The notes below the pieces were generated by a model, which worked only from the letters and a program-made list of their open reading frames with translations, did no database searches and was not told the origin of the DNA. From the NCBI GenBank assembly GCA_965223395.1, contig OZ244996.1:2064876-2128875 (forward strand): a DNA stretch of 64,000 nt, written 5' to 3'. A program made the translations under genes and the position numbers. The stretch comes from Candidatus Promineifilaceae bacterium. Lineage in GTDB: Bacteria > Chloroflexota > Anaerolineae > Promineifilales > Promineifilaceae. Positions within the stretch are counted from its first letter, which is position 1. Every line of letters begins with the position of its first letter. Of this stretch, positions 23,791 to 27,891 are shown piece by piece.

Positions 23791-25152
23791 TTATTGCTTG
23801 GCAAACTCGGCGATGATATGGGCGGTGTGGCGGATGCCATTGCGAAAGTTTTTCAGCAGCATATTTTCGTTGGGGGCATGGACATTGCTGCCCGGATACC
23901 CAATGCCGGCAGAGACCACCGGCACATCCAACAGGTGAACAATTGGGTACAGGGGTCCGCTGCCGCCGATCATCGGTTCGACCACCGGTTCCCGTCCATA
24001 CAGTTGGCGGGCTGTCTCAATCGTCATTTGCACAAATGGATGGTCTGGGTCAACCTTTGCTGGTCGCCCGCCGCCCAAATAATCGACAGCTACGTCGGCA
24101 AAACCTCGTTGATCGAGATGTGACCGCAATTTGGCTACGATCTCTTCGGGCGTTTGATTAGGAACCAGGCGAAAATCGACTTTGGCTCGGGCGGTTGCCG
24201 GCAACACCGTCTTTGTGCCCGCTCCCTGATAACCTGATGTCAAGCCGCAGATAGTGCAAGTTGGGGCAAAAACCGCCTGTGTGGCGATCTCCGCCCAATC
24301 CGTCATCCCTTGCAAAAATCCATCTAAACCATACGCTTCGATAAGATCACGGCTGTCATCGGGCAATCGCCCCAAATATTCTAGATCCCGCTCAGTGGGC
24401 GGAATCACATTCTCGTAAAAGCCGGGAATGAGAATACGTTCGTCGCTATCTTTGAGGGAGTTAAGCGCCCAGGTTAGGCGCCAAGCGGCGTTGGGAAAGA
24501 TTGAGCCGCCCAATCCAGAATGGGCGTCTCGGCTAGCAGTGGATACAGATAGCTCAACGAAACAGATGCCTCGCATACCAAGCGTTAAGGTTGGGTTGCC
24601 GGCATAATCGACGGAGCCAAATTCCCAAATACAAGCATCGGCGGCAAACCGTTTTTGATGTTTCTCCACAAATGCCGGCATGTTGGGGCTGCCGATCTCT
24701 TCTTCCCCTTCCACCATCCATTTGATTTTGCATGGCAATGCGCCTAAAACGCTCCGCAAAGCGTCTACCGCTGCCATACGCGCCACAATATGCCCCTTGT
24801 CGTCTGAAATTCCCCGCCCAAAAAATTGGTCTCCCACCCGCGTTATCTCAAACGGAGGCGAGTTCCACAACTCCACTGGATCAGCTGGTTGGACATCATA
24901 ATGGAGATAAAACAACATCGTTTTATCCCCCTCGCCCCCCACGCCATACACCACCGGATGTCCGTCAGACGGCAAAACCTGGCTGGAGAAATCTTGTTCT
25001 TCCAACATAGCGGCAACCAAATGGGCGCACTCCGTTATCCCGTCATTTTGAGCTGAAATACTTGGCTGAGCCACCAGACGAGTCAGCCACTCTAAATATT
25101 TGTCGATGTTGGCGTCGATATGGGCGTCTATTTGAGAAAAGAGGGTAGGCAT
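23791..25152 (-). CDS. M20 family metallopeptidase/deacylase (ArgE/DapE/ACY1 family)
   Basis: HYDVQPADP and GRGISDDKG metal-binding motifs; divergent from argG so possibly ArgE-like. Confidence 0.75.
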   Translation of the reverse strand: MPTLFSQIDAHIDANIDKYLEWLTRLVAQPSISAQNDGITECAHLVAAMLEEQDFSSQVLPSDGHPVVYGVGGEGDKTMLFYLHYDVQPADPVELWNSPPFEITRVGDQFFGRGISDDKGHIVARMAAVDALRSVLGALPCKIKWMVEGEEEIGSPNMPAFVEKHQKRFAADACIWEFGSVDYAGNPTLTLGMRGICFVELSVSTASRDAHSGLGGSIFPNAAWRLTWALNSLKDSDERILIPGFYENVIPPTERDLEYLGRLPDDSRDLIEAYGLDGFLQGMTDWAEIATQAVFAPTCTICGLTSGYQGAGTKTVLPATARAKVDFRLVPNQTPEEIVAKLRSHLDQRGFADVAVDYLGGGRPAKVDPDHPFVQMTIETARQLYGREPVVEPMIGGSGPLYPIVHLLDVPVVSAGIGYPGSNVHAPNENMLLKNFRNGIRHTAHIIAEFAKQ

Positions 25153-25287
25153 GTGGGGTATCTCCAGCTAGAAATCAATTGGAAAAAGGGTAGTTTACGA
25201 TTGGCATGTCAGAAAATCAATATATGGAAATCGAGTTGCCGCTGTTGTTTGCCTCAAATGCCGGCATTCGCTACACTTACCGTGATC

Positions 25288-25374
25288 ATGTTTACTCAGG
25301 CAACCCAAACCCAATTACGCGCTCGCCGTAGCCGTCGCAACCAAACCATTGGTTTGGAATTTTGCGTTGGGTAA
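25288..25374 (+). promoter_or_regulatory. Candidate arginine-codon-rich leader peptide ORF (MFTQATQTQLRARRSRRNQTIGLEFCVG)
   Basis: 28 codons, 5 Arg codons (cgc gct cgc cgt agc cgt cgc) in 7 positions; lies 95 nt upstream of argG and is followed by terminator hairpin. Confidence 0.4.
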
Positions 25375-25405
25375 GAATCGCCTAAATTAAGTAAGGCAAC
25401 GCAAA

Positions 25406-25438
25406 GCGCCAGACCAGCACCGGTCTGGCGCTTTTTTG
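25406..25438 (+). terminator. Intrinsic terminator/attenuator hairpin immediately upstream of argG
   Basis: GCGCCAGACC-agcac-GGTCTGGCGC followed by TTTTTTG; ends about 30 nt before argG ATG. Confidence 0.6.
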
Positions 25439-25468
25439 TTTGCCAAAATGCAAAAAAAAGGAGAAATA

Positions 25469-26698
25469 ATGTCCGCCAAATCACAACTCAAAAAAGTAGT
25501 GCTTGCCTATTCAGGGGGATTAGATACATCTTGCATTGTGCCCTGGCTCAAACACAATTACGGTTGCGAAGTGATCGCTTTTTGCGCCGATTTGGGGCAA
25601 TCTGACCAAGATTTGGATACCGTCGAAGAAAAAGCGATCGCCAGCGGCGCTACGAAATGCATTATCAAAGATTTAAAGGAAGAGCTTGCCAGCGACTATC
25701 TCTTCCCTATGTTGCAATCAGGGGCAATTTACGAAAAACAATATATGTTGGGCACCTCCATCGCCCGTCCGTTAACTGCAAAATGGCAGGTGTTGGTGGC
25801 GGAACAAGAAGGGGCAGACGGTTTGTCTCATGGCTGTACTGGCAAAGGGAACGACCAGGTACGCTTTGAATTGACCTACAAAGCGTTGAACCCCAATCTG
25901 AAGGTGATCGCTCCCTGGAGAGAATGGGATATTCGCTCCCGGGAAGACGCTCTCGATTATGCGGCGGAGTACAATGTGCCCGTTACCCAAACCAAGGAGT
26001 CGCTTTACAGCCGCGATTCCAACTTGTGGCATATGTCGCACGAGGGAGGCATTTTGGAAGATCCGACCAAAGAGCCGTTGGAAGATATGTTTTTATGGAC
26101 AGTTTCGCCCGAAAATGCCCCAGATGCGCCCGAATATGTGGAAATTGCTTTCGAAAAGGGGAATCCAGTCAGTATAAATGGGATCTCCCTTAGTCCAGCA
26201 AATATGGTGCAAAAATTAAACGAAATCGGCAGCAAACATGGGATCGGGCGGGTTGACATCGTGGAGAACCGGTTGGTGGGAATGAAAGCGCGGGGAGTGT
26301 ACGAGACGCCAGGCGGCGCAATTTTGTATGCGGCGCACCGCGAATTGGAATCATTATGTTTGGATCGGGATACATTGCATTACAAAGAGAATTTGGCGCA
26401 TCAATACGCCGATTTGGTCTACTTTGGCAAATGGTTTCACTCGCTGCGAGAAGGGTTACAAGCTTTTTTCACGGAGACGCAAAAGAGAGTGACAGGCTGG
26501 GTGAAGCTGAAACTGTACAAAGGGAATATCGTGGTTGCCGGCAGATATAGCCTTTACAGCTTGTATCGGGAAGATTTTGCCACCTTTGGCGAAGATGATG
26601 TGTACGATCAGAAGCAGGCGGAAGGGTTTATCAATCTGTTTGGCTTGCAAATGCAAGTTAAAGCGGCAATGGAGATGGCGCAAAACGGAAGCGGTTAG
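25469..26698 (+). CDS. argG: Argininosuccinate synthase
   Basis: [11 protein letters not shown]-loop; full-length ArgG similarity; AGGAGA RBS. Confidence 0.9.
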
Positions 26699-27891
26699 CT
26701 TTGCATGCCCGCTTGCGGGGATGGCGAGATTGCCGGCGGCGTTTCTTCGACAGATGAGGAAATTGCCGGCATTTCGTCCCCTGCCGTTTCCAATGTGGAC
26801 ACAATTAAATCTTGGCTGGACGGCTCGATATTCACCTGAAAATGTTCCCGGTAAATCTCCAACATGGTTAAAAACAAAATCATAATTACCGGACCATAAA
26901 CCACTCCCCAAAGCCCAAACAAAGACAAGCCGCCAAAAGCGCTAATCACCACCAATGCGGGATTTAAGCGAGCGGTTTTCGGCACCAAGAAGGGGCGCAA
27001 AACAGTGTCGATATTGCTGACGATGAGGAAATATCCCATCAAAATGAGGATACCTTGCCAGGTTTGTCCGGTCAACAATTGGTATAGGGCGACCGGAACA
27101 GCGACGATGCTAGCTCCAAGTGGGATAAACGCTGCGCCAATCGCCATCAATGTCAGGAGCAGCAAAAATCGCACGCTGGCAATAGCAAACAAAATGCCAG
27201 TCAATATGCCCTGAACCAGGGCAATGACCATCACGCCGCGCACCATTGCCACTGTCATAGCAGTGATTTTATCCAGAATCTCCTGGTCAATTTCCTGGGG
27301 CAATGGGCTTAACTCTTTGAGATATTCAATCAATCGTGGATATGCCGGCATCATCCCGCCCAAAACCACCACAAATACCATAAAATTGACCAGCCATTGT
27401 ACCGACGACGAGCCCAAACTGATCAGTAACCCGCTTAACCACGATTGCAATGGTTGAATTAAATCGAGGGCGGTGGCGATCAATTCCGTTTCCGAAAAAT
27501 CGATATTTACAAAAGCAGACAACCCTAGATCATTGATAATTCGATTCAATTGAGAAACGGTGGAAGTTATCAGTTGGGTGACGTCATCTGTACTGGCGGT
27601 CGCGGTATTGATGAACGAGATAAGCTGTTGCAAGGCGGATATGCCGATCCAAATAAGCGGCACCAACACCAGCAGTAAGATGATCAAAATCGCCGCTACC
27701 AATGCCATACCTTGTCTGCCGCGAAACAGGCGAAAAAGATAGAGGTATAAAGGTTGGGAGACGATGACCATCACCAAACCAAACATCATCGCCCCTAAAA
27801 AGGGTTGAACCAATAGGTAGGTGATATAAAAGACGCCCAGCAGCGCTAAATAGAAAAAGACGCGAGTGGCGTTATTAATTCTGGGGGTCAT
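26695..27891 (-). CDS. AI-2E family transporter (UPF0118 membrane protein)
   Basis: 398 aa, about 8 TM helices with architecture and length typical of AI-2E/PerM family. Confidence 0.55.

Follow-up and report, generated by a model that had tools for sequence, protein, structure and literature searches.

Arginine genes are usually controlled by ArgR repression. Here we report on the leader region of argG, encoding argininosuccinate synthase, in a 64-kb stretch of DNA from a Candidatus Promineifilaceae bacterium (contig OZ244996.1; hereafter the window, to whose numbering all positions refer unless a locus is named), in which a short open reading frame (ORF) rich in arginine codons, a set of competing RNA helices and an intrinsic terminator precede the gene. 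We consider it likely that this region is a ribosome-mediated leader-peptide transcription attenuator which senses charged tRNA-Arg and controls argG. The classical enterobacterial attenuators (trpL, hisL, leuL, thrL, pheL and ilvL) are built in the same manner, with a short ORF rich in cognate codons followed by segments pairing as 1:2, 2:3 and 3:4; in both, the terminator lies just before the first biosynthetic gene and the stop codon's position would let a terminating ribosome cover region 2. The amino acid, arginine, and the host, an Anaerolineae-like member of the Chloroflexota, set the present locus apart from them. A comparative study of 2005 listed attenuators for other amino acids only, the control known for arginine at the RNA level being T-boxes (PMC1262725), and a genome-wide attenuator survey never mentions arginine (PMC2965389). 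No published Arg-codon leader attenuator of arginine genes was found in the full-text literature open to search, subscription-only papers lying outside it.

Other described systems share single traits with this locus. Leaderless polycysteine short ORFs were reported in mycobacteria (Canestrari et al., bioRxiv 10.1101/834739) and 14 leaderless leader peptides were predicted in Deinococcus deserti (PMC4007540). Both resemble the locus in that a leaderless sensory short ORF heads an amino-acid operon and would stall ribosomes at a run of cognate codons; the main text of the D. deserti paper does not mention arginine. The mycobacterial cysteine elements, as described there, nevertheless have a translational output, the unmasking of a ribosome-binding site, whereas the arginine leader carries an intrinsic terminator, and both the amino acid and the phylum differ. 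Ribosome pausing at Arg codons of an upstream ORF, reporting arginine availability and altering the fate of the downstream mRNA, is known from orf34 upstream of speF in Salmonella (PMC6386406) and from rbfL, upstream of rbf, in S. aureus (PMC13009471). Yet orf34 and rbfL contain two Arg codons only, act either on mRNA stability, by way of RNase G, and on Rho termination or through occlusion of a ribosome-binding site, and target polyamine synthesis or a biofilm regulator rather than arginine biosynthesis, with no trp-type terminator/antiterminator switch. The term "arginine attenuator peptide" (AAP) designates in the literature the product of the fungal arg-2/CPA1 upstream ORF. This peptide, which is not rich in Arg codons, stalls the ribosome by means of its conserved sequence at high free arginine and represses translation. 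It thus resembles the present leader as a small upstream ORF controlling a gene of the arginine pathway in response to arginine, but follows the opposite logic, since stalling at low arginine is here proposed to give induction. ArgR/AhrC with their ARG boxes and arginine T-boxes serve the same purpose of arginine feedback control, while the sensor at the present locus would be the translating ribosome.

The intergenic region upstream of argG (25153-25468) contains the 28-codon ORF that the original prediction had described as bearing five Arg codons in seven positions and no obvious Shine-Dalgarno sequence (Table 1). Both statements hold: the ORF runs from an ATG at 25288 to a TAA at 25372-25374, the five Arg codons are all CGC or CGT, and no Shine-Dalgarno precedes it; another in-frame ATG further upstream, at 25259, sits within the promoter spacer. 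The Arg run alone is weak evidence and not rare by itself, as the six frames of the window hold 34 runs of at least five Arg in seven codons, where shuffles give about 11; most of the 34 fall in off-frames of genes. The case rests on comparison with other genomes.

The strong GC hairpin and T-run foreseen about 30 nt before argG correspond to an intrinsic terminator, retrieved by a consensus scan, whose 13-bp stem (8 G-C pairs) encloses a 6-nt loop and is followed by TTTTTTGTTT up to 25441; the U-tract proper (25432-25441) leaves about 27-28 nt to the argG ATG. The leader ORF is thus separated from the first structural gene by the terminator. Searching the leader for mutually exclusive pairings, the check originally suggested, returned three helices that are correctly placed with respect to both the Arg codons and the stop codon: region 1 starts 3 nt past the last Arg codon, and the stop codon lies 3 nt past region 2. 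Region 1 forms a 7-bp hairpin with 25351-25357 (1:2, -8.4 kcal/mol), region 2 pairs with region 3 at 17 of 19 positions (2:3, the antiterminator, -25.3 kcal/mol when the terminator 3' arm is absent) and region 3 pairs with region 4 (3:4, the terminator, -25.0 kcal/mol). Of the inverted repeats noted earlier, CCAAACCA (25341-25348)/TGGTTTGG (25350-25357) and TTGCGTTG (25362-25369)/CAACGCAA (25397-25404) are both present, but the latter pair forms no separate hairpin and is instead the lower half of the antiterminator. The free transcript folds as 1:2 plus 3:4. When the 3' arm is withheld and the sequence up to the edge of a ribosome stalled on the Arg run is masked, the 2:3 helix becomes the minimum-energy fold, while a ribosome placed at the stop codon covers region 2 and leaves only the terminator. 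The antiterminator is mutually exclusive with the terminator, and modelled geometry would put the 5' strand of 1:2 under the stalled ribosome and region 2 under the terminating one; the ribosome footprint sizes used for this coverage are general-knowledge values. The 2:3 duplex (-21.3 kcal/mol) is far more stable than expected from dinucleotide shuffles of the upstream segment (-10.6 +/- 2.2 kcal/mol; z = -4.9), none of 500 being as good, and the fold of the whole leader gave z = -3.7. The 1:2 hairpin is followed by AAUUUUG and was scored terminator-like in the scan; we speculate that it might serve as a pause site coupling translation to transcription.

The ArgG protein places the window in the Chloroflexota near Promineifilaceae/Ardenticatenaceae, and homologues of the leader were found in eight distinct Promineifilaceae/Ardenticatenaceae-like genomes (7-10 kb upstream examined), where they precede argC and head arg operons of the type argC-argB-argD-...-argG-argJ-argH (Table 1). 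The gene or operon downstream consequently makes the amino acid whose codons are clustered, both here and in the homologues. The Arg run, whose loss in orthologous leaders had been named beforehand as counting against an arginine attenuator, is kept in all eight: each has 3-6 Arg codons, exclusively CGC or CGT, at the aligned site, together with all three helices. The homologous peptides have the motif RRQT[IFT]GL in common and are poorly conserved beyond the Arg run and the RNA-constrained part. In the homologues regions 1 to 4 read CCAGACC, GGUCUGG, CCAGACC and GGUCUGG, against CCAAACC, GGUUUGG, CCAGACC and GGUCUGG in the window.

Covariation was counted in an alignment (A3) of nine sequences, namely the window and the eight homologues. 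Helices 1:2 and 3:4 taken together are paired at 92.8% with 6 pairs changed on both sides, a result equalled by none of 500 shuffles and standing against 24-53% in slid controls. Helix 1:2 (alignment columns 54-60/65-71) is 95% paired with one compensatory pair, and the conserved terminator helix contributes 5 compensatory pairs. The 2:3 core is paired in 63 of 63 cells (100%), compared to 21-49% in slid controls. In two homologues (L162 and L164), an A replaces G as the first base of region 2, a U replaces C as the last base of region 3, and region 4 opens with A, so that both competing helices compensate for this G-C to A-U substitution; the window's own change from G-C to A-U, which affects helix 1:2, results in a U-G wobble within 2:3. 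With the 3' arm withheld, the antiterminator forms in all nine sequences at -20.7 to -26.7 kcal/mol, a stability close to that of the terminator (-20.8 to -27.0 kcal/mol), 1:2 being weaker (-7.9 to -14.5 kcal/mol). A covariance model built from these sequences, R1, finds a single copy in the window (25321-25438, 99.9 bits), with no second copy across the 64 kb, and scores the eight relatives at 87-111 bits. Judged from this comparison the element is real and conserved: its parts and their capacity to pair can be read off the aligned loci, as can the way they are conserved, covary and go together with arginine genes.

A promoter of the sigma-70 type (TTGACA, 16-18 nt, TAnnnT) ends 6-10 nt upstream of the mini-ORF ATG in essentially all loci with an Arg leader, including the more distant ones described below, and no Shine-Dalgarno was detected before the mini-ORF in any of the relatives' Arg leaders. 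The -35 hexamer is TTGACA in nearly all relatives and TTGCCT in the window. This arrangement suggests that the 5' end of the leader transcript coincides with the AUG or falls within about 3 nt of it and that the leader ORF is probably translated from a leaderless mRNA; leaderless initiation would account for the absent Shine-Dalgarno.

The likening of the layout to leader-peptide attenuators answering to arginine is supported by every structural feature that could be examined, and we propose that the leader would operate as follows. Transcription from the sigma-70-type promoter (25249-25277) would begin 0-3 nt before the AUG, and a 70S ribosome would load on the leaderless mRNA and translate the 28 codons. 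When Arg-tRNA is scarce, this ribosome would stall in the CGC/CGT run and cover region 1, leaving region 2 to pair with region 3 as soon as the latter is made; the 2:3 helix would preclude the terminator and RNA polymerase would read into argG. When Arg-tRNA is plentiful, the ribosome would reach the stop codon and cover region 2, region 3 would pair with region 4, and transcription would end in the U-tract. In a transcript that is not translated, 1:2 and 3:4 would both form, leading to termination as well.

Table 1. Features of the argG leader region in the window and leader peptides of the homologous loci.
Feature	Position or locus	Strand	Basis
Putative -35 hexamer TTGCCT	25249..25254	+	4/6 match to TTGACA; 17 nt before TACACT; TTGACA at the aligned position in homologues
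Putative -10 hexamer TACACT	25272..25277	+	10 nt before leader ATG; sequence and promoter/mini-ORF scan
Leader peptide ORF, 28 codons plus TAA, encoding MFTQATQTQLRARRSRRNQTIGLEFCVG	25288..25374	+	sequence; homologous peptides in L162-L172
Arg-codon run CGC GCT CGC CGT AGC CGT CGC, proposed ribosome stall site	25318..25338	+	CGC/CGT Arg codons at the aligned position in homologues
Region 1, CCAAACC, 5' strand of the anti-antiterminator	25341..25347	+	1:2 hairpin, -8.4 kcal/mol
Region 2, GGTTTGGAATTTTGCGTTG (as RNA GGUUUGGAAUUUUGCGUUG), partner of region 1 or region 3	25351..25369	+	pairing and folding
Region 3, CAACGCAAAGCGCCAGACC, antiterminator 3' strand, overlapping the terminator 5' arm	25397..25415	+	pairs with region 2 at 17/19
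Region 4, GGUCUGGCGCUUU, terminator 3' arm	25422..25434	+	pairs with region 3
Intrinsic terminator: stem 25403-25415/25422-25434, loop AGCACC, U-tract TTTTTTGTTT	25403..25441	+	terminator scan; -25.0 kcal/mol
argG Shine-Dalgarno AAGGAG	25458..25463	+	read from sequence
argG, argininosuccinate synthase, presumed regulated gene	25469..26698	+	NCBIfam NF001770 equivalog, 619 bits against a cut-off of 334
Homologous leader peptide MNFVNQTLFRRLRRRQTFGLVICAV	L172		
Homologous leader peptide MLTTAAILCAPRVRRPRQTIGLVFRVA	L170		
Homologous leader peptide MSMLGSLILRRPRRRQTTGLAFWVV	L169		
Homologous leader peptide MINQPTPRLRRRTWTIGLVLEVV	L163		
Homologous leader peptide MFAQITAPRRFRRRRPTFRSGV	L171		
Homologous leader peptide MNMFIDTQALRVIRRRRQIHSLVFELA	L162		
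Homologous leader peptide MNTFFDTQALRVIRRRRQIPSLVFELA	L164		
Homologous leader peptide MLEVVAHLTRSLRPRSQIMVWLQVLAG	L167 and L168		

Known regulatory families were also sought at the locus. Neither tRNA genes nor Rfam families scoring at the gathering threshold were found across the window, and at the same threshold no family, T-box and riboswitch included, was detected in the window or in 15 related loci; this holds for the leader families (Trp_leader, His_leader, Leu_leader, Thr_leader, Phe_leader, leu-phe_leader and others), to none of which the locus is similar in sequence or by covariance model. A permissive E-value search of the leader region against Rfam 15 returned solely terminator-like fragments or tails of unrelated small RNAs. 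The T-box model gave no match in 24900-25700 even at E <= 10, and no ARG-box-like site (TGAATWWWWATTCA, up to three mismatches) occurs in 25153-25468, the latter being a weak test since the palindrome consensus derives from distant phyla.

Several other explanations of the locus were weighed against an arginine-sensing attenuator. The switch could be real and yet be set by another factor, for instance a protein that binds RNA, an uncharged tRNA or some small ligand, the Arg-rich ORF being incidental or untranslated. Such a reading would agree with the missing Shine-Dalgarno, with translation being deduced from promoter position only, and with the fact that part of the peptide motif (QTIGL) is explained by RNA pairing (CCAGACC ATT GGTCTGG) rather than by coding. 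We nonetheless regard it as unlikely, because the Arg runs are in frame with an ATG at the predicted transcript start in every homologue and also in unrelated-looking leaders of different RNA sequence, because the Arg codons of this subfamily lie outside the helices and hence are not explained by pairing, because the stop codon is always positioned for a terminating ribosome to cover region 2, and because no T-box or riboswitch model matches. Accidental association of an ORF with an ordinary terminator-like hairpin is barely credible: Arg-rich off-frame runs are indeed common in DNA of about 51% G+C, as the 34 runs in the window illustrate, but elements both homologous and analogous to this one are found again and again, their geometry conserved and their helices covarying, and the comparative data effectively refute chance.

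The functional product might alternatively be a short RNA ending at the terminator, or an Arg-rich micropeptide, with argG transcribed independently or by leak-through. A terminator of this strength would indeed free an RNA of about 150 nt, and the Sinorhizobium rnTrpL/peTrpL pair is reported to be an attenuator-derived RNA and leader peptide with trans functions. This is very unlikely to replace attenuation at the present locus, given that the stretch from the terminator to argG, where 27 nt separate the U-tract from the ATG, yielded no promoter-like site, that the element always stands directly before arginine genes in whatever operon form, and that, apart from the Arg run and the part constrained by RNA pairing, the peptides show little conservation; a trans role would moreover supplement cis attenuation and not substitute for it. 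Finally, the charge of nascent poly-arginine in the exit tunnel, with five Arg in seven residues here and RRRR in other members, could stall ribosomes regardless of arginine supply and result in constitutive partial read-through or a translation-stress response. We hold this to be highly improbable, as the element is linked only to genes of arginine biosynthesis in many lineages, which favours Arg-specific sensing, and the Arg runs are never replaced by lysine or mixed basic runs. CGC and CGT are read by one tRNA-Arg species, and the restriction of the subfamily to these two codons fits the sensing of tRNA charge.

Attenuation by a ribosome reading the Arg codons thus remains our preferred explanation, although a number of points weigh against it. 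The minimum-energy fold at equilibrium still contains the terminator when the ribosome mask is applied, which rules out a purely thermodynamic switch; antitermination must therefore be kinetic, as it is in the Escherichia coli trp leader. The window promoter matches the consensus at 8 of 12 positions only, and 10 nt separate its -10 hexamer from the ATG, where the closest homologues have 7-9 nt. One homologue (L167) has just 3 Arg in 6 codons. Covariation comes from nine sequences only, and the sole change on both sides of the 2:3 core comes from two closely related ones. The window variant CCAAACC/GGTTTGG was seen only once, because no relative with an ArgG above 73-75% identity exists in the genome, metagenome and protein collections searched. 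From sequence alone, we infer the transcription start, translation of the ORF, ribosome stalling and the response of argG to arginine.

In the closest ArgG relatives (L001-L027, L081-L096) no leader was found directly before argG, because the gene stands inside an arg operon or has been joined to a GNAT domain. The operon runs argC-argB-argD-GNAT-argG, often with argJ and argH after it, and the GNAT acetyltransferase either forms one gene with argG or is encoded before it. ArgG proteins with an N-terminal GNAT domain (about 600 aa) occur in many Promineifilaceae/Ardenticatenaceae-like genomes (L002/L162, 10001-11797; L007/L164, 7001-8797; L165; L171; and many proteins), and a second, stand-alone GNAT gene often lies upstream of the fusion inside the arg operon; the fusion may join an N-acetylglutamate synthase-like function to ArgG. 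In Candidatus Promineofilum (L165/L166, 6879-6950), a tRNA-Gln(CTG) gene and a terminator precede GNAT-argG in place of the Arg leader. In the window, argG is monocistronic because the next gene (26695-27891) is convergent. The divergent gene on the other side of the leader region (23791-25152, minus strand) encodes an M20 hydrolase that had been supposed to be perhaps an ArgE-like deacylase. This was not borne out by NCBIfam: its best matches, all below cut-offs, are dipeptidase-like M20 families (PRK06446, 365 bits against 369; also PRK08201), and the ArgE/DapE models fall far below theirs, those for ArgE scoring about 52-64 bits against cut-offs near 300-410. Nothing indicates a regulation common to the M20 gene and argG.

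Arg-codon leaders are not confined to the close relatives. Both strands of L001-L161 and the window (about 1 Mb) were scanned for promoters with an ATG and three or more Arg in five codons behind them, and 25 of the 28 hits with a promoter score of at least 9 directly precede argG. Other Anaerolineae/Caldilineae-type genomes and metagenome contigs carry two more groups of mini-ORFs with an Arg run, likewise directly upstream of argG, and most of those with a promoter also have a terminator after them. The Ornatilinea/Anaerolinea-type group (e.g., MNFNSVAKSLKRARRTFWSFQEGRLRVVCVEQPL, MFTVFAMPRSRRPKPASFEKVGSFLFG) has its own terminators and antiterminators. The more numerous MFxxRRR group encodes peptides such as MFILRRRRT or MFMLRRRTNQRDEVRSLV and displays an invariant terminator, AACCACGA.GG...CUCGUGGUUUUUU, while no convincing classical antiterminator was found in it. 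Its MF[IM]xRRR class upstream of argG (L029-L032, L036, L039-L044, L048, L054, L109 and L112; alignment A1) has Arg codons, GCAGGCGU, that pair with a downstream CGCGUCUGC, and a second long-range helix, GGGACGAG/CUCGAAUCCC, which covaries by eye and crosses the first. R1 is marginal to the MFxxRRR group (E 0.01-0.13) and does not match the Ornatilinea/Anaerolinea-type leaders, which gives no proof that the three groups share an ancestor. We tentatively raise the possibility, which we rate as rather doubtful, that Anaerolineae-class Chloroflexota use leaderless Arg leader peptides throughout the lineage, in place of or beside ArgR, including a second and more widespread class, MF[IM]xRRR, with Arg codons in a conserved helix and without a visible classical antiterminator. 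If true, that class implies a switching mechanism unlike the trp paradigm.

Other argG upstream regions showed peculiarities of their own. In two high-GC loci (L060, 2762-2830; L125, 1266-1349), a perfect TTGACA-N17-TATAGT lies 9 nt before the mini-ORFs MHSLYRSLDLRARTVRRRRTAG and MHSALRSFFLRTRTVRRRRTAGSSPGL, upstream of argG, and no U-tract terminator was detected at either leader; these may be a translational or otherwise different variant. Several of the loci L029, L030, L039, L044, L109 and L117 have a terminator 200-400 nt upstream of argG, the spacer containing short cgtcttcgtg-like repeats and no obvious ORF. In contigs of human-gut Clostridia (L134-L159), a conserved terminator about 110-130 nt upstream of argG ends the preceding gene; repeats similar to TTGAATATT / TTGAATAATCG near the argG promoter resemble ARG boxes and there is no Arg-run mini-ORF. 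If ARG boxes, these repeats would be a sign of ordinary ArgR control.

The argG leader of the window is probably an arginine member of the classical leader-peptide attenuator class that had so far not been described, its new features being the arginine specificity, the new phylum and the leaderless start. The same leader appears in differing operon contexts, heading argC...argG-argJ-argH in the relatives and a lone argG here. A conserved arginine attenuator would fill a gap in classical leader-peptide control and would extend leaderless sensory short ORFs from the Actinobacteria and Deinococcus to the Chloroflexota. It would also offer annotators of uncultured Anaerolineae genomes a regulatory RNA family absent from Rfam, and would supply a compact part of about 150 nt usable as an arginine-responsive genetic switch.

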